Shown here: in pieces, positions 1 to 7,153 of the stretch | Position numbering within the stretch: the stretch's first letter is position 1 | Layout of the letters: every line of letters begins with the position of its first letter | Source of the DNA: a virus | IMG/VR virus record: IMGVR_UViG_3300002920_000097 | Span: 1 to 7,153 of that record | Length of the DNA: 7,153 nucleotides | Reading direction: 5' to 3' (one strand) | Made by a program: the position numbers and the translations under genes | The notes under the pieces: model-generated | What the model was told of the DNA's origin: nothing | The model's input: the letters and a program-made list of their open reading frames with translations, nothing else | The model's database searches: none

Positions 1-77
1 CGCAGTCTCGGCTGGTGATGACCGGATACACAAGTGCTTTCATGTTTGCGCTCCTTGCCTGATGCTTGACCCTATTA
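1..77. repeat. Terminal direct repeat, left copy. It is identical to 7077-7153 and indicates a circular genome or assembly overlap with a 7,076-bp unit.
   Basis: Base-by-base comparison shows that 1-77 (cgcagtctcggctggtgatg...cttgaccctatta) equals 7077-7153. Bases 1-43 duplicate the first 14 codons of the minus-strand 96-aa gene that starts at 7119. Confidence 0.95.
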
Positions 78-101
78 TACACGTCTAAGCGTTCACTGCA
101 A
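44..101 (-). promoter_or_regulatory. Sigma70-type promoter and Shine-Dalgarno for the 96-aa / KorA-like operon (its gene start is at 43, equivalent to 7119).
   Basis: Read on the minus strand: TTGCAG (96-101), a 16-nt spacer, perfect TATAAT (74-79), AAGGAG (51-56), then 7 nt to the ATG at 43. Confidence 0.6.
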
Positions 102-157
102 TACCGTTCGTCGGGCAAAAACTACCGTTTGTCGGGTAAAAGCTACCGTTCGTCGCC
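102..157. repeat. Three tandem iterons with an exact 21-bp period and core TACCGTT(C/T)GTCG.
   Basis: The copies are TACCGTTCGTCGGG at 102-115, TACCGTTTGTCGGG at 123-136 and TACCGTTCGTCGCC at 144-157. The first copy directly abuts the -35 hexamer of the promoter at 74-101. Confidence 0.8.
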
Positions 158-213
158 ACCAGCGGCGCGCGTGCGCGGGGTGTCAGACGCGGGCGAGGTG
201 GTCGAAAGCAGGC

Positions 214-289
214 CCGCTTGCAGAATTGGCGCACGAGAATCGAGGGTCGAGCAGGACGAGGGCGACTAGATCGCTTCGGCGAACGCGAC
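214..289. repeat. 76-bp junction repeat, copy A. It covers the last 7 codons and stop of the Xre-like gene plus 52 nt downstream.
   Basis: It aligns without gaps to 6571-6646 with 69/76 identical bases, and the last 25 nt are identical. The TAG stop is at 266-268. Confidence 0.9.
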
Positions 290-484
290 CGAGACGACGC
301 GAAGCCTAGGATGCTGATTCGTGAGCAGCAGAAAAAGCTCCCACCGCGCTTTGTCAATCTGCCGGACGCCGCGCTCATACTCAGACCACCGCACCGCCGA
401 CGAGAGATGCACGAGATAGGCCGACTGCGCTTGTGTCAAACCAGCACGCAGCCTTGCCGATAGCACTTGGTCGGCTGAGATCAT
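266..484 (-). CDS. Xre-family helix-turn-helix transcriptional regulator (72 aa).
   Basis: The product has a typical HTH_XRE pattern (LRAGLTQAQSAYLVHLSSAVRWSEYERGVRQIDKARWELFLLL). Its ATG overlaps the stop of the upstream ORF as ATGA at 481-484, which suggests translational coupling. The C-terminus VAFAEAI is shared with the 6623-6844 product. Confidence 0.8.
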   Translation of the reverse strand: MISADQVLSARLRAGLTQAQSAYLVHLSSAVRWSEYERGVRQIDKARWELFLLLTNQHPRLRVVSVAFAEAI

Positions 485-783
485 CGATTAGCCTGACCTT
501 GGATGACCGCATCGACGCGCCGAAGCTCATCGAGGACTTCGCACATGCGCTGCCAGAGCTCATCGGAGCGGATTCCGTCGCCTGCATCGTCCACATCCAT
601 CGACTGACGAGAAAGGTCGAAGAACAGCACCGAAAGCGTATAGCGCATTGACTCAAGCTGCTGCTTATCCATGATCGTACCTAGAGCGTAGGGGCCGACG
701 GCCCGGAGGGTGAAAACGGTAGTGCGGGAGGTCATGGTCGTCTCATTGTAAGACTCTATAGACATGGACATAGTATAGCGCAT
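481..783 (-). CDS. Hypothetical small acidic protein, first gene of cassette 1. The start is uncertain (783, 735 or 672).
   Basis: The frame is open and its stop overlaps the Xre-like gene start. Third-position GC looks coding from about 740 downward. I recognised no family. Alternative ATGs at 735 (GAG 8-10 nt upstream) and 672 (AGG 7-9 nt upstream) are equally plausible. Confidence 0.5.
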   Translation of the reverse strand: MRYTMSMSIESYNETTMTSRTTVFTLRAVGPYALGTIMDKQQLESMRYTLSVLFFDLSRQSMDVDDAGDGIRSDELWQRMCEVLDELRRVDAVIQGQANR

Positions 784-810
784 TGAGTTACTCTGCGCTC
801 GAAAATATAT

Positions 811-1620
811 CTATAGCGTAGAGTTACGCGATAACTTTCTCACCGTGGATGGCGACCAGTACATCGTCACCGGTAGATACCTTGGGGACGGCCTGAACGC
901 CCTCTCTAGCGCATGGCCTACGAGACTCCACAGCGTAGGTTTTTTCGGCACACCCGCCGACCAAACGGAATGCGCGCCGTGCGGATAGTCTGACCGGAAC
1001 ACTTGCCGGGTGTCGTAGGCCGCGTGGAGATCGTCACCCCGGAACATCCATCGCTCAGCGACGACGGAATTCTGACCGTCACCAACACGGGCGACGGCCA
1101 TATGAAAGCGGGGAAGGTAGCCTGCGCGACCACCGAATAGGTCATTGAGGATGCCGCCGATGACCGGAATTTTGATCTTGTCGCCTCGAAACATCTTAAC
1201 ACGGTACTCGATGAGGGCCTCCCGGACTTGCTTGTCGATCATGCCGGAGTCTTGGACGATGAGATAAACGTCCCACCCGAGTTTTCGGGCGTGGATGAGC
1301 CAATCGAGGACCTGGGCGCGGCCCTTGTCCTGAAAGGAACGGGCGTTGAGCCATGTACCGAGTTCGTCAAGAATCATAACGCCGTTTCGTTCCTCGTCGT
1401 AGCTGTCCGGGTTGCCGTGACCGACCGCCTCAAGATCGGACGCGGTAGGTTTGTCCGGAATGCGCACGTAATGAACCGCCTTATGAGGAACGAGCTTGTC
1501 TAGGTACAGGTCGACGTTCGACGCGACGCGACGGCCTTGGAGAAGGGCACGTTTAGCCTGCCAGACAGCAAACTTAGTTTTGCCTGTACCGAGCTTCCCC
1601 TCGACACTGTAAACCGGCAT
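811..1620 (-). CDS. zot: Zot / pI-family phage assembly NTPase (269 aa), ATPase domain only.
   Basis: Walker A is GKLGTGKT near the N-terminus and Walker B is VMILDE. The gene follows the pVI-like gene as in inoviruses, and its ATG lies 3 nt after that gene's stop, with GGGGTGAG upstream. I see no hydrophobic transmembrane segment anywhere in the 269 aa. Confidence 0.9.
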   Translation of the reverse strand: MPVYSVEGKLGTGKTKFAVWQAKRALLQGRRVASNVDLYLDKLVPHKAVHYVRIPDKPTASDLEAVGHGNPDSYDEERNGVMILDELGTWLNARSFQDKGRAQVLDWLIHARKLGWDVYLIVQDSGMIDKQVREALIEYRVKMFRGDKIKIPVIGGILNDLFGGRAGYLPRFHMAVARVGDGQNSVVAERWMFRGDDLHAAYDTRQVFRSDYPHGAHSVWSAGVPKKPTLWSLVGHALERAFRPSPRYLPVTMYWSPSTVRKLSRNSTL

Positions 1621-1623
1621 GAC

Positions 1624-1941
1624 TCACCCCACGATCAACGAAGCGATGCGTTCGAGATACGAATACGCTATTTTTGCCGCCCAGAGAACTGCCAAACCGG
1701 TAACCACCGTTCCAGCTATCGGCGGGAACGCCAGACCGATCACCGTTCCATACGACGTGGCAAACAGCGCCGAAATCAACGGGCTAATTGTCGTGTTGAA
1801 CAGCGTGACAAGAGCAACGTAAACCGCCGCAACTGCGGCAACAATGGTAATACGAATGGCCCACTTAAAGCCGACTTCTGCAACGAGAAACGAGAAAAAC
1901 CGAGTGAACCACCCGACAAGCAACGCAGCAAGGACTGGCAT
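1624..1941 (-). CDS. pVI-like small polytopic membrane protein (105 aa), a minor virion or assembly protein by position.
   Basis: The product is almost entirely hydrophobic with about 3 predicted TM stretches (LAALLVGWFTRFFSFLV, IRITIVAAVAAVYVALVTLF, VIGLAFPPIAGTVVTGLAVLWAA). GGAGG lies 9 nt upstream of the ATG. It sits between the adsorption protein gene and zot. Confidence 0.65.
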   Translation of the reverse strand: MPVLAALLVGWFTRFFSFLVAEVGFKWAIRITIVAAVAAVYVALVTLFNTTISPLISALFATSYGTVIGLAFPPIAGTVVTGLAVLWAAKIAYSYLERIASLIVG

Positions 1942-1944
1942 TTT

Positions 1945-3510
1945 TTAGACCTCCGAGTTTCGACGTCCAGAAAGAATACCGATAGCACCGAATAATCCCG
2001 CAGCCGCCCACAACATGGACATAATATCGTGAATCATGGGTTGCCACGGGCAAATGTTGACCTCGCTGAACCCGTACTTGGCGAAAGGCACAGGAATAGG
2101 GCCGCACGCGGAGGGTAGCGTGAACGACCAGTTTATATCAGGAAGATGCGGAAAGCAGGTTTTCCAATCGGTTTTGAGGCAGTTAGGAATAGCCTGTTTG
2201 AATACGTTCTCGCCGTCATCTTTGGGAGGTTGAGGTGTTCCTCTTTCGTCAATCTTACATGGTGGAGTATCCGGCAAACCACACTCCAAATCTTCCTGTT
2301 GAGGACTGTTAGGGTTATTCGGATGAGTCGGGTTAGTAGTCGTCGTCGTCGTCGAAGTTTGATTCCCCTGCGGATCACGTGTCGTAGTTTCAGTCTTGGT
2401 AACGAAATCAATAAGATTGCCGTTCGTAGTTGCCGTCGTCGTCGTTGTAGTCGTAACCGTAGAACCGTCCGGGTTCGTCGTAGTCGTAGTGACCGGATCA
2501 CCAACTTGAATGGTAAAGGACGGGATTTGTAACGACACCGGCCACCTGAATTCGGCATCAGCAGGATCGTCTTTTATCTCGCGGGCGACGGTATCAATAA
2601 CTCCTGACTCATTCGGCAAGCCATTGAAAATAGCGACCAAACGATCCGGCGACATTTTATCTTCGGCCTTAGATATAACCTGATCTGCAGAAATAGGAAC
2701 CTCCGAGGGTGGAAGAGTAGAAACGCAAGACGTACCGTTCCAATAATGACCTACCGGACACCCATTAAGAGGGCGACTAATAATATCGAAAGTTTGAGTA
2801 ATAGGGACAGTGCGAACACATTTATTGCCGGACAAATAGAAGGACGACGCATAAATACCCTGATCCGTGACGGTACCCCACCACTTGCAAGCGCCTTGTT
2901 TTGTTAATCCATGCGGCAAAGGTGCCCACTGACCGCCCCACCAATACACGCCGTATTGATTTCCGTCAGACTGTGGAAACTGATTAGGATGAATGTACTG
3001 TTGCTCTAAAAACTGACCATCACGAAACAAAACGCCAAGCTCGTCGAGCATTTCGCCAAGCTGGTATGCCGTTCCAAGAACCGGGACGAGTTTAACTAAT
3101 GACTTTGCAAGCGTGCGTTTAGCAACTGGCTCAACTATACGGACAGGAAGTTCCGAAGAACGACCCGGAAGCTTGACATTGGCCGGAACATCAATAACGG
3201 CAACTTTATTCGGCGACGACGTAAGGCCATACGCCGACAAAGGGCGAAGGGGCGAATAACCGCCTTGAAACGGGAACGGCTGTTGAACGAGCGTGCCCGA
3301 ATGACGGTTCAGCTTCCAGCCGGTGGCGGTGGGATCGAGGGACCAAGCAAGGCCGGCGACCTTGCCCTGCGGGGACGTGATGAACGCCGCGGCGTTGCGG
3401 CGCGCGTCATCCATGCCGCCCTGCCAAACGATGCCAGCATGGGCGGATGCGGCCATGCCCACGGCCAGAAGCGCCGAGGTGAGCGAACGACTGGTGAGCA
3501 TGGCCGCCAC
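1945..3510 (-). CDS. pIII-like adsorption / minor coat protein (521 aa from GTG 3510, or 518 aa from ATG 3501).
   Basis: It has a signal peptide (LTSALLAVGMAASAHA|G), a Cys-containing N-terminal region, two poly-Thr linkers (TTTTTNPDGSTVTTTTTTTATT and TSTTTTTTNPTHPNNPNSP), and a Cys-rich C-domain ending in a membrane anchor (MSMLWAAAGLFGAIGILSGRR). It lies immediately after the major coat gene. Confidence 0.75.
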   Translation of the reverse strand: MAAMLTSRSLTSALLAVGMAASAHAGIVWQGGMDDARRNAAAFITSPQGKVAGLAWSLDPTATGWKLNRHSGTLVQQPFPFQGGYSPLRPLSAYGLTSSPNKVAVIDVPANVKLPGRSSELPVRIVEPVAKRTLAKSLVKLVPVLGTAYQLGEMLDELGVLFRDGQFLEQQYIHPNQFPQSDGNQYGVYWWGGQWAPLPHGLTKQGACKWWGTVTDQGIYASSFYLSGNKCVRTVPITQTFDIISRPLNGCPVGHYWNGTSCVSTLPPSEVPISADQVISKAEDKMSPDRLVAIFNGLPNESGVIDTVAREIKDDPADAEFRWPVSLQIPSFTIQVGDPVTTTTTNPDGSTVTTTTTTTATTNGNLIDFVTKTETTTRDPQGNQTSTTTTTTNPTHPNNPNSPQQEDLECGLPDTPPCKIDERGTPQPPKDDGENVFKQAIPNCLKTDWKTCFPHLPDINWSFTLPSACGPIPVPFAKYGFSEVNICPWQPMIHDIMSMLWAAAGLFGAIGILSGRRNSEV

Positions 3511-3513
3511 AGA

Positions 3514-3768
3514 TCAAGCCGCGCCGCGAATCTTTTTCACGTACTTGATGGCGACCACGAACACGACGCCGACAGCGGCCAAGCCAACGAGCGCAGCGCC
3601 GTAGGTGGCAATGTCAGCCGAGGCTGTTTGGACGGCAGCATTAAAGGCAGCAGCGCCGCCGCCGCCGCCGCCACCGGCGCCGCCGCCGGTGGTCTGCGCG
3701 AAGGCAGCGAGCGGGCCAGCAACGAGGGCGACGGGGAGGGCGATTTTACGGATGGTGTGCAGTTTCAT
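3514..3768 (-). CDS. Major coat protein (pVIII analogue), an 84-aa precursor.
   Basis: It has a signal peptide ending AFA|Q, a Gly/Ala-rich exposed N-terminus, one hydrophobic helix (YGAALVGLAAVGVVFVVAI) and a basic C-terminus (KYVKKIRGAA). GGAG lies 11 nt upstream of the ATG. Its position precedes the pIII-like gene. Confidence 0.85.
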   Translation of the reverse strand: MKLHTIRKIALPVALVAGPLAAFAQTTGGGAGGGGGGGAAAFNAAVQTASADIATYGAALVGLAAVGVVFVVAIKYVKKIRGAA

Positions 3769-3810
3769 GGCTGAGATGCTCCAGAGAGACGCCAGTACCC
3801 GACTGGCAGC

Positions 3811-3830
3811 GGATCGGGGGACGGCCCCCC
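3811..3830 (-). promoter_or_regulatory. GC hairpin (G5/C5-6 stem, 4-nt loop) between the mini-ORF stop and the coat gene.
   Basis: The plus strand reads cGGGGGacggCCCCCC at 3815-3830. No U-run follows on the minus-strand RNA, so it is not a canonical terminator. It could be an attenuator or an mRNA-stability element. Confidence 0.3.
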
Positions 3831-3834
3831 AGAT

Positions 3835-3948
3835 TCAGACAGCGGAGAGGATGCGACGGACCCAAGCATGGGCGACACCCGAGACGACTCCGACACCGAA
3901 GACAGCCATATAGGCGGCGATGTAGGTGACGAGTTCGGACCAATCCAT
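3835..3948 (-). CDS. Hydrophobic mini-protein, 37 aa (pVII/pIX-type minor coat candidate). It is absent from the ORF track.
   Basis: Hand translation gives MDWSELVTYIAAYMAVFGVGVVSGVAHAWVRRILSAV. The ATG at 3948 lies 3 nt after the stop of the preceding mini-ORF. There is a single TM helix with a basic tail, and the position just upstream of the major coat gene matches Ff gVII/gIX. Confidence 0.55.
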   Translation of the reverse strand: MDWSELVTYIAAYMAVFGVGVVSGVAHAWVRRILSAV

Positions 3949-3951
3949 GAT

Positions 3952-4056
3952 TCACATACGGTTTCCGACGAAGTAGCCAGCCGCGAACACCAAGACGCCG
4001 ATACCGGCGACGATGGCGAGCCAAACGGACGGGTCTAGCAGTTCAGGGTCAGTCAC
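3952..4056 (-). CDS. Hydrophobic mini-protein, 34 aa (pVII/pIX-type minor coat candidate). It is absent from the ORF track.
   Basis: Hand translation from GTG 4056 gives (M)TDPELLDPSVWLAIVAGIGVLVFAAGYFVGNRM. AAGGA lies 6 nt upstream, and the start overlaps the stop of the 108-aa gene (GTGACTGA). Confidence 0.5.
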   Translation of the reverse strand: MTDPELLDPSVWLAIVAGIGVLVFAAGYFVGNRM

Positions 4057-4375
4057 AAATGATCCTTGTCACGTGACCGGTACCGATAAGGACCGGGTGG
4101 GGGTGGACATAGCACGGAACCGAAGGGCGGACCTTCTCGGCCATGAGGCGATCGAGAACAGGAAGACCGTCGGATATCGCAGGAGCAACCGGCGGCGTTT
4201 GGTGATACGACGTCATCCTCGGGGACTGGTCGAGCGGAACCCAGGCAGCGCGATCGACGAGCCAAACGAGAGGGCGACCGTCCGGGGCCTTGGGTGGAGG
4301 ATCGGCTGGTAGCTGGGCGTCAGAGGCGGCGATGTAGCCGAACGCGAGCAGGACGACGGCGAGAACTTCACGCAT
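4049..4375 (-). CDS. Secreted or periplasmic proline-rich hypothetical protein (108 aa).
   Basis: The N-terminal signal peptide is MREVLAVVLLAFGYIAASDA|Q. GAGG lies 8 nt upstream of the ATG, and the start overlaps the Rep stop by 8 nt. I recognised no family. Confidence 0.65.
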   Translation of the reverse strand: MREVLAVVLLAFGYIAASDAQLPADPPPKAPDGRPLVWLVDRAAWVPLDQSPRMTSYHQTPPVAPAISDGLPVLDRLMAEKVRPSVPCYVHPHPVLIGTGHVTRIICD

Positions 4376-5240
4376 GGAACGACCTCAGGGATGACCACGG
4401 ACCGGATACCCATCGAGCCGGTACCTCTCGAATAGCCGACAGAAACATTTGGCCTCGATGCCGCACGATGCGAAATGGAGAGTCCAGTAGCTCGCCCGTT
4501 TCACGCAACACACGACGGCCAGCGCGGGTGACGACTTCGCCGACGCCGTGGAGTTGACGGAGCCACATAGGGAAGTTGAGCCAGGACCGGATTTGACGGG
4601 AAGGGTGCTCAAGTCCGCCGACGCCGTAGGTCCGGCATCCCTTGGGGTAGTCATGACGGCCCCCAATCTTGCTCATGTACTTCATGAGGTAGACCACGGC
4701 ATCGCGGGCGATTTCGCGCTGTGCCATGCCGTAGGGCCAGAACACGGCGCCGGTGCGAGTAGGCTGGTCCCACTTGGGCATACTCAGATGCTTAGGAAGC
4801 CAAAGCGCGACGTGATAGTGAACCGTGCCTTTCTGCTGAAGTTCGGCGACCCAGACGTACCGGGGATGGGCACCGGTTTTCTTCGCCCAATGGCGAAAGC
4901 GCTTGATGGCGTCCGAGATGTGGCGCGGGTTCCAGTCGTGGGCACCGTTGCCGAGAGTGCCGCGAGTGTCGTAGGTGAGGGTGACGAACCACACGCGGTA
5001 GCCGTGGGGACACTCTTGGGAATGGAGCTTGCCAGCAGCCCAGACGTTACGACGAAGGGCGGCGAGACGACGCTCCCGGAGCTTGACGGGGTCCGTTGAG
5101 ATGGGAATCCAGTTGTCCGGGTAAGCGTGGACACTTGTTTTAGATGAGACAAGCCCCGCCGCCCCGGCCTCTGCACCCGCGCTGCGCGCGTGTGCGGCGG
5201 CCGTAGCGACGGCCCCATGCTCAGTTTGATGGGCGTGCAT
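4368..5240 (-). CDS. Rolling-circle replication initiator (HUH endonuclease, pII analogue), 290 aa from ATG 5240.
   Basis: The three RCR motifs are present in order: FVTLTYD (motif 1), VHYHVALW (HUH, motif 2) and AVVYLMKYMSK (catalytic Tyr, motif 3). The track ORF extends to 5486, but that extension is P/R/S-rich and overlaps a better-looking ORF in another frame. Confidence 0.85.
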   Translation of the reverse strand: MHAHQTEHGAVATAAAHARSAGAEAGAAGLVSSKTSVHAYPDNWIPISTDPVKLRERRLAALRRNVWAAGKLHSQECPHGYRVWFVTLTYDTRGTLGNGAHDWNPRHISDAIKRFRHWAKKTGAHPRYVWVAELQQKGTVHYHVALWLPKHLSMPKWDQPTRTGAVFWPYGMAQREIARDAVVYLMKYMSKIGGRHDYPKGCRTYGVGGLEHPSRQIRSWLNFPMWLRQLHGVGEVVTRAGRRVLRETGELLDSPFRIVRHRGQMFLSAIREVPARWVSGPWSSLRSFHA

Positions 5241-5250
5241 GGGGTGGCCC

Positions 5251-5472
5251 TCAGAGGGTGTAGCCGCCGATGGGAATGCCATCGGGGCCGTGGATGGTGG
5301 CCTCCACCGCCAACCGACGACCTTCTGGCTGCACGGTGTAGGTGACGCAGGTAATGCCGCCCGGGGTGTCGTCGGCGATCTGCTGGGCATCGGCCCGAAG
5401 GAGGATGCCGAGCAGCGCAGAGACGACCACGCTTTGGGCGTCCGTCCATTCCTCACGCTTGGGCATGGACAT
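5251..5472 (-). CDS. Hypothetical protein (73 aa) between gV and Rep.
   Basis: The ATG at 5472 is preceded by GAGGGG. Third-position GC is very high (about 85% by hand count), as expected for a true frame in this genome. The stop lies 10 nt before the Rep ATG. Confidence 0.6.
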   Translation of the reverse strand: MSMPKREEWTDAQSVVVSALLGILLRADAQQIADDTPGGITCVTYTVQPEGRRLAVEATIHGPDGIPIGGYTL

Positions 5473-5482
5473 GGCGCACCCC

Positions 5483-5773
5483 TCACGCCGTGGCCGGTTG
5501 CTTGACCGGAGCGAGAGCCACTGCCGCGAGGATCAGACGGCCATCGCGGACGCGAATGGCGGAGGGGTGCAAATGGTAAAGACCGGGAGGGTAGGGGGCT
5601 TGGTCAGCGTCGAGGATAAACTCGAAGCGCTCGGGGTAACGGGCGGGCTTGCCGTCCGGCCCGACCACGAAAGCATACCCGCTCTGGATGCGAAGGTAAT
5701 ACGCTTTGCCCGTTGCCTTGCTTTGGCCCGAGAGTTCACGGACTTGCGAGGACTCAATTTCGACTTTGATCAT
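5483..5773 (-). CDS. gV: Single-stranded DNA-binding protein, homologue of Ff gene V protein (96 aa from ATG 5773).
   Basis: MIKVEIESSQ...GKAYYLRIQSGY...DADQAPYPPGLYHLHPSAIRV...LAPVK aligns by eye along its whole length with recalled M13/fd gVp (MIKVEIKPSQ...GKPYSLNEQLCY...DEGQPAYAPGLYTVHLSSFKV...LVPAK). GGAG lies 7 nt upstream of the ATG at 5773. The track start at 5797 is non-ATG and I disfavour it. Confidence 0.9.
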   Translation of the reverse strand: MIKVEIESSQVRELSGQSKATGKAYYLRIQSGYAFVVGPDGKPARYPERFEFILDADQAPYPPGLYHLHPSAIRVRDGRLILAAVALAPVKQPATA

Positions 5774-5790
5774 GTTTCGCTCCGGTTGAC

Positions 5791-5831
5791 AACCCACGAC
5801 GGGTTACCCGGAGCATAACCCAAAGAGGGTT
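5791..5831. promoter_or_regulatory. Two 15-bp palindromic operator candidates, AACCC-N5-GGGTT, in the gV/repressor divergent region.
   Basis: They are AACCCacgacGGGTT at 5791-5805 and AACCCaaagaGGGTT at 5817-5831, with centres 26 bp apart. I did not see this motif elsewhere in the window. Confidence 0.6.
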
Positions 5832-5841
5832 TGCCATGCAA
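5812..5841 (-). promoter_or_regulatory. Candidate promoter for the gV-Rep-structural operon.
   Basis: Read on the minus strand: TTGCAT (5836-5841), an 18-nt spacer, TATGCT (5812-5817). The -35 hexamer is the reverse complement of the ATGCAA start of the plus-strand repressor gene. The 5817-5831 palindrome fills the spacer. Confidence 0.5.
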
Positions 5842-6147
5842 GAGGCTGAGCCGCTGGTAATCCTCAGGGAGCTAATCGAACGCGCAGCACGTGAAGTCGG
5901 CACCAAGACCGAGCTAGCGCGGCAAGTAGGGGTAAACCCTCAACGCATCAACGACTGGCAAGCCGGTTACCGGCCGTGTCCGCCCGAGGTTGTGGCCGTC
6001 ATCGCCGACATAGCCGGGATGCCCGGCAAGGAATGGTTAGCGCGTGCAACTCTTTGGTACGCAAGGGAAAAACCGTACTTCGAGAGACTGAGGCAAGCCG
6101 TGGGAAAAGCGTGGACGCGGACCGGCGCGGGCACCGTTACGTCTTGA
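5836..6147 (+). CDS. HTH DNA-binding protein, a repressor/immunity-type regulator (103 aa). It is the only plus-strand gene.
   Basis: AGAGGG lies 8 nt upstream of the ATG. The HTH segment is GTKTELARQVGVNPQRINDWQAG. Its divergent orientation relative to gV resembles the repressors of temperate inoviruses. Confidence 0.75.
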   Translation: MQEAEPLVILRELIERAAREVGTKTELARQVGVNPQRINDWQAGYRPCPPEVVAVIADIAGMPGKEWLARATLWYAREKPYFERLRQAVGKAWTRTGAGTVTS

Positions 6148-6252
6148 CTATGCGCCGCTTTGGCACTGGCCTTTGGTGAACAGGTGAAACTCGCAGCCAA
6201 AGTTCCACAATTTGTATTAGATCAATCGGTAAGTGATTTCCAATTGAAAAAT

Positions 6253-6281
6253 ATCATACCGTCAGCGTAGAATCTTTGCAA
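6253..6281 (-). promoter_or_regulatory. Near-consensus sigma70 promoter in the AT-rich island of the large intergenic region, firing leftward and antisense to the repressor gene.
   Basis: Read on the minus strand: TTGCAA (6276-6281), an exact 17-nt spacer, TATGAT (6253-6258). A plus-strand TTGAAA (6244-6249), 18-nt spacer, TAGAAT (6268-6273) is interleaved with it. Confidence 0.5.
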
Positions 6282-6570
6282 CGTCGGGAACGAGACGAAC
6301 AGACCCGTACACGACCACGCAGTAGAAGACAGTCTGAACAGGGACACGAACGAGCGGAAAACGGGAAGCAGCCTTGAAGGTGAACGGCTGGTGTGGCGCT
6401 TTGTGATGCTGTCGGTAGTAGTCGCGGTAGTACACGCCAACGGTATCCCCCCCGGTTCCCCTACGCGCGTCCACCGGATCGGGACGCGCTACAGCAAGCC
6501 GTCAACAACGCTACCACACGCGGTACGGACCTGCGACGCGCTCCGGGCGCGGACGGCGCCGCGCCGGGGA

Positions 6571-6646
6571 CCGCCTGCAGGGTTGGCGCACGAGAATGCA
6601 GGGTCTAGCAGGACGAGGGCAACTAGATCGCTTCGGCGAACGCGAC
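6571..6646. repeat. 76-bp junction repeat, copy B. It covers the last 7 codons and stop of the KorA-like gene plus 52 nt downstream.
   Basis: 69/76 bases are identical to 214-289 without gaps. The TAG stop is at 6623-6625. Confidence 0.9.
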
Positions 6647-6844
6647 GAGCTCATCAGCTTTCCGGACACGACGGACCGCGTTTGTGACACGCTGCAAACT
6701 GATGCTGTGAAGACGCGCAGCGTCAACCGGACGAAGCCCATCGACGAGCACGAGACGCGCAGCTTGGCGCGCAGGCCCGGCGCGCATGCGTATCAAGCGC
6801 GCGATGCAGTCAAAGCGCGCGTGCGTCATCAGATGTTCGGACAT
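6623..6844 (-). CDS. TrfB/KorA-like HTH transcriptional repressor (73 aa from ATG 6844, or 68 aa from the coupled ATG 6829).
   Basis: ARLVLVDGLRPVDAARLHSISLQRVTNAVRRV matches the recalled RK2 KorA segment ARGVLVDGKPQATFATSLGLTRGAVSQAVHRV. The in-frame ATG at 6829 shares its A with the upstream gene's TGA (TGATG). The C-terminus is VAFAEAI. Confidence 0.7.
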   Translation of the reverse strand: MSEHLMTHARFDCIARLIRMRAGPARQAARLVLVDGLRPVDAARLHSISLQRVTNAVRRVRKADELVAFAEAI

Positions 6845-7119
6845 ACAGACACGCGATGCACAGTGATCGTGTCGTCGAATGACATCTCGTGCGCGATCTC
6901 GTGCAGCTTGTCTTGCACGTCAACATACGCTGATCGCATCGCGAGCACTTCAACGCGCGAGACGCTGCGCACGTCATGCGTGCCACCGCGCTTGATCTTG
7001 TATCCATCGTCAATGAGGGCTCGGATAGCGTCGTCTTTCGTGTCGCGCTCGATGACGATGGGGGGCGCAGCGTATACGCAGTCTCGGCTGGTGATGACCG
7101 GATACACAAGTGCTTTCAT
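6829..7119 (-). CDS. Hypothetical protein (96 aa), first gene of cassette 2.
   Basis: The ATG at 7119 has a strong AAGGAG 7 nt upstream and a TATAAT promoter (seen in the equivalent copy at 44-101). I recognised no family. Confidence 0.7.
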   Translation of the reverse strand: MKALVYPVITSRDCVYAAPPIVIERDTKDDAIRALIDDGYKIKRGGTHDVRSVSRVEVLAMRSAYVDVQDKLHEIAHEMSFDDTITVHRVSVCPNI

Positions 7120-7153
7120 GTTTGCGCTCCTTGCCTGATGCTTGACCCTATTA
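7077..7153. repeat. Terminal direct repeat, right copy, identical to 1-77.
   Basis: See the feature at 1-77. An overlap of exactly 77 nt is what a de Bruijn assembler with k=77 leaves on a circular contig. Confidence 0.95.

Follow-up and report, generated by a model that had tools for sequence, protein, structure and literature searches.

The morons of tailed phages, as described by Hendrix and colleagues, are reportedly autonomously expressed genes inserted between conserved genes. In CTXphi, the rstR/ig-2 immunity modules and the RS1 satellite represent an exchangeable regulatory region flanked by conserved DNA, while in M13 and in rolling-circle plasmids illegitimate recombination places the end points of deletions and insertions at short homologies. 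Among filamentous phages (inoviruses), a 626-nt unit consisting of a regulator and attP distinguishes the Ralstonia phages phiRSS0 and phiRSS1 by its presence or absence, and the route of its gain or loss has been described as unknown (PMC3816273). Here, we analysed a 7,153-nt stretch of viral DNA (IMG/VR record IMGVR_UViG_3300002920_000097, positions 1 to 7,153; hereafter the window), which is an inovirus genome. Two regulator cassettes, each ending in a small helix-turn-helix (HTH) gene, lie in tandem in this genome, and a 79-nt direct repeat brackets the second of them. We consider it probable that the repeat is the insertion scar, a duplicated junction, of a captured operon of the type found in conjugative elements.

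The resident cassette 1 consists of the genes p100 and xre72, and the captured cassette 2 of p96 and korA73, preceded by a promoter region that we call segment X. Like a moron, cassette 2 is a foreign transcription unit with its own promoter, located between conserved backbone features and absent from close relatives. Unlike a moron, it resides in an inovirus and has no detected terminator, its last gene borrows the codons and stop of a neighbour, and 79 nt of the backbone are doubled. It resembles the phiRSS0/phiRSS1 unit as a short HTH-regulator unit by the intergenic region of a dif-integrating inovirus, with a presence that varies among close relatives. It differs from that unit in being a separate 719-bp module without attP, in carrying a conjugative-element-type operon and in having long direct repeats that offer an exit. 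A variable regulatory region and tandem prophage arrays (found in the relative L024) recall CTXphi, but whereas one module is swapped for another in CTXphi, here two unrelated regulator cassettes stand in tandem and the second is non-phage. As in illegitimate recombination of single-strand replicons, one joint lies at a short imperfect microhomology, and the position of the second joint, upstream of the first, accounts for the doubled stretch of backbone. Unlike in the documented cases, the mechanism is here proposed from sequence only. The event is ordinary modular phage evolution, to be placed among morons and mosaic acquisitions, and not a new kind of genetic element. What sets this genome apart is a tandem of two unrelated regulator cassettes, of which the second has a conjugative-element origin, together with a readable tail graft; the repeat itself is without demonstrated function.

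The direct repeat and its two HTH genes

The window is a closed circle of 7,076 bp, as positions 1-77 and 7077-7153 form an exact terminal overlap of 77 nt (100% identity), a length that suggests the k-mer size of the assembler. Unless stated otherwise, the genes, ORFs, repeat copies, segment X, insert, conserved block and attP candidate of the window described below lie on the minus strand. Copy A of the repeat (211-289) covers the last seven codons and the stop of xre72 (266-289) followed by 55 nt of non-coding DNA (211-265). In copy B (6568-6646), the same 24-nt tail and stop are fused to korA73, again followed by 55 nt, and the copy abuts a conserved intergenic block. The tail reads GTC GCG TTC GCC GAA GCG ATC TAG (VAFAEAI*) in both copies, which close the open reading frames (ORFs) 266-484 and 6623-6844, respectively.

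The copies are identical at 71 of 79 positions, and their starts lie 6,357 bp apart, or 719 bp the short way round. Their ungapped alignment scored 55, whereas 200 dinucleotide-type shuffles reached 16 at most. The similarity ends sharply, with none in the 300 nt flanking either side except for 4 nt past a 1-nt gap. All eight differences are in the non-coding part and none in the 24-nt tail, and no stretch of identity exceeds 25 nt. An earlier sequence-only reading of this DNA had described 76-nt repeats, 91% identical and 719 bp apart, that cover the last seven codons (VAFAEAI), the stop and 52 nt of non-coding DNA. These values agree with ours (69/76, or 91%), with the repeat reaching 79 nt and its non-coding part 55 nt at full extent.

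Upstream of the shared tail, the two regulators are essentially unrelated, in agreement with the same reading, and their best Pfam matches differ. The best Pfam match of xre72 (266-484), an Xre-type HTH gene, is to HTH_31, below the gathering cut-off (23.3 bits, cut-off 27, E = 7.8e-5). That of korA73 (6623-6844), a small KorA/TrfB-like HTH gene, is to KORA (PF16509), over profile positions 1-59 of 84 and also below the cut-off (20.8 bits, cut-off 26.7, E = 4.4e-4). The korA73 homologues P0008-15 (49-55% identity) carry precomputed PF16509 matches, and the PLSDB matches of korA73 are annotated as KorA or TrfB-related. Exact-protein look-ups of xre72, korA73 and two of the nearest korA relatives, P0002 and P0004, found none on record.

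The arrangement could also reflect true paralogy of the HTH genes, or an assembly chimera in which two phage variants were joined at the repeat. Both proteins are small HTH proteins that match each other in BLASTP with an E-value of 8e-5 when the tails are included, and the sequence is a metagenome contig for which no reads were available. Without the tails, however, the E-value of this single comparison is 0.018 (33% identity over 54 aa), and the two proteins fall into large families of their own, which differ in tails and genomic contexts. A mis-join in the assembly graph would seem unlikely, since the copies have eight differences and their longest identical stretch, 25 bases, is shorter than the 77-nt overlap. 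We consider chimera or paralogy extremely improbable.

Ownership of the shared tail

We found 47 homologues of xre72, most of which carry PF13560. The closest (72-89% identity, from five other samples) end in ..QHPRLRVVSxxFAEAL, some being longer where the stop was lost. By contrast, the five closest korA73 homologues are invariant through ADELV and then continue into unrelated tails (TLAASFDRKRS, KIASSFDRKRA, ALAAAHK and similar). Since the xre homologues keep FAEAL-type ends and the korA homologues do not, the tail and its stop belong to xre72 and were grafted onto korA73, whose own C-terminus past ..ADELV was swapped for AFAEAI*.

The joint can be read in the DNA. The sequence at this point is GCTGATGAGCTCGTC|AAAATCGCG.. 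in the korA homologue of locus L058, GCTGATGAGCTCGTC|GCGTTCGCC.. in the window and ..GTCTCGGTC|GCGTTCGCC in the resident xre gene. This right joint lies at an imperfect CTCG(G)TC microhomology of 6-7 nt, just past korA codon V67, and the reading frame is kept. Because the tails of the korA family vary in length and sequence, replacement of the tail would probably be tolerated.

Relatives with a single repeat

Relatives of the window were recovered by protein-anchored searches. Locus L013 (Logan SRR21554418) has the order Zot, p152, xre72 homologue (89% identity), 250 nt and the single-stranded DNA-binding protein (SSB). In L014/L015, a p84 gene and an xre homologue are followed by 230 nt and SSB, and in L023 Zot, an xre homologue and intergenic DNA follow one another. 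L001, a 5,338-bp circle from IMG/VR, has lost cassette 1 except for a remnant of the last 17 codons (..YQHPRRRAVLIPSAESI*) at 1088-1152. As it keeps this remnant and the repeat, L001 is a deletion derivative. Each of these relatives has one repeat, with the flank of copy A upstream and that of copy B downstream in the coding sense. The stop codon is lost in L014 and L023, where the region is read through. The more distant L024, a prophage of Tepidimonas alkaliphilus, has neither cassette; its similarity, extending from the replication genes across the intergenic DNA, ends at window position 6572 on the 3' edge of copy B, and it lacks the repeat except for the last ~10 nt. The 3' flank of copy B (coding sense) is common to L001, L013, L014, L023 and L024, and the insert is absent from all of these and from L015. 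A single junction had been anticipated in the form that precise excision of the module would leave; four relatives with one repeat copy were found in that predicted arrangement, and the calculated length of 6,357 bp is correct. As a separate observation, L001 is a minimal circular relative that lacks all three HTH genes of the window and retains the repeat.

Copies A and B agree with each other at 71/79 positions, whereas neither exceeds 62/81 when compared with the repeat of a relative, and their identical 24-nt tails differ from the tail of every relative at 5-8 positions. As the copies are closer to each other and share tail states seen in no relative, the duplication would have taken place in the lineage of the window itself, after cassette 1 was in place. 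The opposite polarity, with the two-cassette state ancestral and the module being lost by deletion between the repeats, would give the exact single-copy structure, A-like on the left and B-like on the right. The clade does lose regulatory DNA, as the remnants of xre72 and HTH103 (a third HTH gene, see below) in L001 attest. However, the 90% identity between A and B exceeds that to any relative's repeat (at most 77%), the tail states are absent from all relatives, and cassette 2 is missing from four diverged relatives as well as from the outgroup L024. In addition, a single-copy stage must precede the graft, the tail being native to xre. We therefore regard an ancestral two-cassette state as very unlikely.

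Genomic context of cassette 2 homologues

In cassette 2, p96 (6829-7119) is the first gene, and its stop overlaps the start of korA73. Homologues of these genes are found next to relaxase genes. This holds for three independent contigs. A TrwC relaxase gene (PF08751, E = 7e-46) comes directly after the p96 (67%) and korA (76%) homologues of L059, and another (PF08751, E = 4e-61) after the korA homologue (74%) of L058. The ORF behind the p96 (66%) and korA (67%) homologues of L022 begins with the N-terminus of the L058 relaxase. In both L059 and L022, p96 immediately precedes korA. The 29-aa ORF fragment of L022 alone had no match in Pfam, PDB or PLSDB, and its relaxase call rests on the longer homologues in L058 and L059. 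At the DNA level, cassette 2 and L022 share 73% identity over 493 nt. A p96 homologue with 40% identity is present in L019/L020. All p96 homologues came from tblastn searches of fetched contigs, as a word-indexed protein search and a PLSDB protein search returned none. An AlphaFold (AF2) model of p96 made with no alignment had a mean pLDDT of 45.8 and was unusable for a fold search.

No homologue of any window inovirus protein was detectable in L016-L022, and in L058 and L059 the korA and p96 homologues were the sole homologues of window proteins. Contigs with more distant korA homologues carry a plasmid-type protein with Replicase and PriCT_1 domains, a D12 methylase, a TraR/DksA zinc finger and an ArdC-like peptidase, the last below the Pfam cut-off. 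In L060, a korA-like gene is located at the end of a tailed prophage, adjoining an integrase; this locus and L061/62, likewise more distant contexts, added no iteron or repeat-like DNA. Judging by these neighbourhoods, cassette 2 belongs with the operons of mobile elements, conjugative ones among them, and its relatives are not phage genes. Its base composition does not distinguish it as foreign, with 59.8% G+C in cassette 2 compared with 58.5% overall. Downstream of the korA-like module in L020, positions 2715-3408 encode a short-period peptide repeat (..PPCRRLR..) in all three frames, a pattern that points to an array of DNA repeats at regular spacing, which may be CRISPR-like.

Segment X (44-210, 167 nt) forms the 5' part of the insert. 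It contains three iterons, CCGAC(G/A)AACGGTA, with 21-nt spacing (102-114, 123-135 and 144-156), a -35-like TTGCAG (96-101), a -10 TATAAT (74-79) and a Shine-Dalgarno sequence AGGAG (51-55). The three iteron matches, compared with 0.31 expected, all lie in X, with none elsewhere in the phage genome. Iterons, a promoter, a 96-aa gene and a KorA-like gene had already been proposed between the repeats, and all were located. In L017, a 48-nt block with one iteron, the -35 and the -10 is 92% identical and precedes different cargo and a korA gene with 60% identity. Cassette 2 and X probably form a self-contained operon that is autoregulated through the iterons, to which KorA73 is predicted to bind. 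A PLSDB DNA search with X and copy A gave chance-level matches only. At the junction of copy A and X (150-240, minus strand), nested stems are possible (CGTGCGC..GCGGGC..|..GCCCGC..GCGCACG), of which GCGGGC is created by a copy-A-specific substitution at 213; the fold energy of this junction is no better than that of shuffles (z = 0.84).

Like IncP KorA/TrfB (PF16509), korA73 encodes a small HTH protein that matches the N-terminal DNA-binding part of KORA, and it is located at the end of an operon with repeated candidate operators upstream. Unlike IncP KorA, its 73-aa product is without the KorA-type C-terminal domain and its Pfam score is below the cut-off. The iteron CCGACGAACGGTA is also unlike what we take to be the IncP KorA operator.

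As cassette 2 homologues lie upstream of TrwC in L058, L059 and L022, we asked whether cassette 2 and X could represent relaxosome accessory genes and an oriT of a MOBF (TrwC) conjugative element. This position is that expected of such genes, and the window itself is without a relaxase. The captured module might accordingly be the leading part of a conjugative transfer operon, with operator/oriT-like iterons and two accessory or regulatory proteins normally found before TrwC, through which the phage would interact with the element. We rate this as a quite improbable reading, together with the related one that the core of the repeat (ATTCTCGTGCGCCAA) acts as a docking motif. If it were true, the phage could be mobilised by the element's relaxase and mating channel, or could control the element's transfer genes, including those for the pilus, a possible phage receptor, for example in superinfection exclusion. 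A docking motif would let such modules enter and leave inovirus genomes.

Possible origin of the duplicated junction

The insert unique to the window (6647-7076 and 1-210) is 640 bp long and has no terminal inverted repeats (6/40). The sequence-only reading had offered, as one of two options, a cassette inserted by recombination at the junction. This option is supported by the observed single-copy relatives, by the donor-type context of cassette 2, by a tail that is native to one regulator family only and by a right breakpoint that can be read to the base on the donor side. The ancestral backbone would have had the order Zot, cassette 1, 55 nt and conserved intergenic block, as is still seen in L013, L014 and L023. 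Into it, an operon of 640 bp with three iterons, a promoter, p96 and a KorA/TrfB-like repressor was probably captured, in the simplest account through two illegitimate joints in one event. At the left joint (211|210), the exit from the phage would have been at the edge of the conserved intergenic block. At the right joint, which coincides with the CTCG(G)TC microhomology within the terminal codons of xre72, re-entry would have been 79 nt farther upstream. Because re-entry upstream of the exit doubles the stretch between the two points, korA would then read AFAEAI and a stop instead of ..TLAASFDRK.

An upstream return would leave both xre72 and the conserved intergenic block intact, while a downstream return would delete part of that block, so that a surviving product is expected to carry the duplication. 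The route might have been template switching or break-joining between single-stranded intermediates, such as rolling-circle phage DNA and a transferred plasmid strand. We infer both the one-step mechanism and the nature of the left joint from the final arrangement, and template switching is plausible.

Several points weigh against this explanation. The left joint is without demonstrable microhomology, and donor sequence upstream of the iterons was not recovered. The eight differences between the copies are unevenly spread, with states unique to copy B in the 5' non-coding half and states unique to copy A in the last 15 nt adjoining X, where identity is 11/15 compared with 60/64 elsewhere. Between the two zones lies a perfect 15-nt core, ATTCTCGTGCGCCAA. 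The 11-mer TGCGCCAACCC of the copy B core was found once in 552 kb of fetched loci, at L017 1596-1606, which is 22 nt upstream of the L017 block of iteron and promoter (chance ~0.01, a rough estimate). Such a core-like motif may have been present in the donor. Gene conversion acting on the two copies might mask an older origin. Moreover, a divergence of 10% marks an old arrangement, yet a second two-cassette genome was not found, and the arrangement is known from a metagenome assembly.

The segregated differences may also be expected from a single crossover in the 15-nt core with a donor bearing its own repeat-like end, either a small circle or a closely related phage with the order repeat, X, p96 and korA::tail. 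Copy A would then have a backbone 5' part and a donor 3' part, and copy B the reverse, which matches the segregation of the differences around an identical core; in addition, L014 and L024 have the same polymorphic state as copy B at 6606, an A. However, such a crossover would only move the two illegitimate joints (between repeat and X, and between korA and tail) to an earlier, unseen donor and so requires more events. Neither this donor nor a 719-bp circle was found in IMG/VR searches with the 25-mer common to both copies, which had no exact match, or with the promoter pattern, p96 and a korA alignment, which returned none. With about six independent differences, segregation by chance has a probability of ~0.05-0.1, and deletion in relatives or unequal constraint would give the same pattern. 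The segregated differences may equally fit unequal constraint or chance. We consider the crossover unlikely.

On the insertion-scar reading, a foreign regulatory operon has entered a very small phage genome and left its neighbours unharmed, at a breakpoint resolved to the base and from an identified type of donor. The cost of the capture would be that korA73 lost its own C-terminus and borrows that of its neighbour. The flanking duplication would offer a built-in, probably slow route for exact loss of the module. Homologous recombination between copies with 90% identity, and with uninterrupted identity of no more than 25 bases, is expected to excise the module infrequently, which fits a module that has persisted to 10% divergence. 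The case documents gene flow from conjugative elements to inoviruses of thermophilic or freshwater Burkholderiales, and marks the stretch from Zot (gene I) to the conserved block as the clade's hot-spot of regulatory change. It also bears on the gain and loss of regulator units in filamentous phages, a question raised for phiRSS0 and phiRSS1 (PMC3816273).

The repeat and the conserved intergenic block as cis-elements

The other option of the sequence-only reading was a functional site that the phage needs after each regulator. In this form, the repeat would be a cis-element required 3' of each regulator operon, for example for termination, RNA stability, packaging, replication or protein binding, and kept twice by selection. 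The perfect 24-nt tail, compared with eight changes elsewhere in the repeat, would fit such constraint, as would the merging of the repeat's 3' end into the most conserved DNA of the clade and the recurrence of the core 11-mer beside the L017 iteron block. On the other hand, no terminator-like site, fold better than shuffles or Rfam match was found, and the 55 nt of non-coding DNA are ~70-77% conserved among relatives, below the adjoining block. L024 lacks all but the last ~10 nt of the repeat, and L014 and L023 read through the lost stop. With attP located elsewhere as well, the proposal of a required site was not upheld, and we judge it quite unlikely.

We evaluated the repeat as several kinds of known element. 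No terminator-like site was found in 211-289 or 6568-6646 that would make it an intrinsic terminator. As a hairpin, it was no more stable than shuffles, with or without flanks (z -0.3 to +0.8, including +0.70, +0.33 and +0.84). The Rfam scan gave no match to a known RNA, nor to a tRNA family, a tRNA 3' end having been considered by eye. The repeat contains no AT-rich dif-like core as read from the sequence, and it was rejected as attP or dif since the ends of the L024 prophage map to a dif-like 35-mer with a counterpart in the window at 6200-6227, ~340-350 nt from copy B. Target-site duplications typically measure 2-14 bp. At 79 nt, with insert ends that match as inverted repeats at 6 of 40 positions and with no transposase, the repeat was also rejected as the target-site duplication of a transposon or insertion sequence. 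As for a site-specific gene cassette, one cargo only is bracketed by the repeat, which has no stable fold; the exact core was absent from the 57 loci searched and the 25-mer from IMG/VR, while the 11-mer recurs beside the L017 iteron.

The G+C-rich intergenic block at 6450-6567, which begins at the end of copy B, is 86-93% identical to L001, L014, L023 and L024, compared with ~70-80% for genes. It contains a hairpin, CCGGCGCGG-N6-CCGCGCC(C)GG, as well as long invariant runs and further paired stretches. This block, rather than the repeat, is the better candidate for a cis-element, possibly an origin or packaging signal. Substitutions in it are too few for a covariation test.

The dif-like site and the HTH103 unit

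Relative L024 is a tandem double prophage in Tepidimonas alkaliphilus, comprising two units of 5,697 bp that are 99.9% identical. It is bounded by a dif-like 35-mer, GCCGTGGTTTACACCATATAAATTGTGGAACTTTT, at 5459-5493, 11156-11190 and 16853-16887. The candidate attP of the window (6200-6227; GATTGATCTAA TACAAA TTGTGGAACTT) has the same XerC-side arm. The clade probably integrates through the host XerCD, with a member of the Burkholderiales as host.

The site lies near HTH103 (5836-6147, plus strand), a YdaS/Cro-like HTH gene that is divergent from the replication genes. A unit of HTH103 and attP (5858-6413) is present in L023 and L024 and absent from L001, L013 and L014/15. It thereby mirrors within this clade the phiRSS0/phiRSS1 dimorphism of integrating and non-integrating phages. 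L001 retains the first seven codons of HTH103, and both edges of the unit show A(c/t)TACC microhomology.

Genome organisation and cassette 1

The window is assigned to the inoviruses by a Zot/pI ATPase, a rolling-circle Rep, an SSB, a coat-like protein and a pIII-like protein encoded on one strand of a small circle. Pfam matches of window proteins include Zot (PF05707, E = 4.5e-24), REP_ORF2-G2P (E = 7.7e-28) and Phage_DNA_bind (E = 1.2e-10), and Zot/pI also matches the PHROG pI family (E = 4e-90). The core genes, all on the minus strand, are SSB (5483-5797), Rep (within ORF 4368-5486), an 84-aa coat-like protein (3514-3768), a 521-aa pIII-like protein (1945-3510) and Zot/pI (811-1620). Past Zot, the minus-strand order is p100, xre72, copy A, segment X, p96, korA73, copy B, the conserved block and an AT-rich stretch. 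No transposase or integrase was found among the window proteins, and the whole window had zero matches in megablast and blastn searches of 50,697 GenBank phages. Zot/pI is just 269-270 aa long across the clade (window, L001, L013 and L023); its match to the PHROG pI profile of 353 positions is limited to positions 1-223, and inspection by eye revealed no membrane segment.

In cassette 1, p100 (481-783) is the upstream partner of xre72, with which it shares an ATGA stop/start overlap. Its true start is probably M17 (coordinate 735), giving a protein of 84 aa. Homologues occur in L014 (84 aa, 70% identity) and L013 (63%), and p100 is absent from L023. Neither p100 nor p96 had a family match in Pfam, PHROGs, NCBIfam or PADLOC, and the two show no similarity to each other. 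A type II toxin-antitoxin pair was rejected for either cassette, as no toxin family was recognised in p100 or p96 and L023 has xre without p100. Similarity of xre72 to MqsA-type HTH proteins is weak only (E = 0.064 and 0.008). The protein also matches the NCBIfam family VC1465/XafT of Xer recombination activation, through the generic HTH portion only (E = 1e-3; 19 bits, cut-off 70). In a dif-integrating phage such a match is noteworthy, and we keep it as a lead and not as a finding.

The interval from Zot to cassette 1, together with the annotated 5' end of p100, contains direct repeats of the GTATAGCGCATTGA type (638-661, 773-796 and ~812-825), which are possible operators of cassette 1. A 70-aa ORF at 6262-6474 is a candidate gene whose counterpart in L023 was called as a gene of 106 aa. 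The best sigma-70-like sites of the genome stand back to back at 6244-6281, in the AT-rich stretch adjoining attP, with TTGAAA-18-TAGAAT (10/12) on the plus strand and TTGCAA-17-TATGAT on the minus strand.

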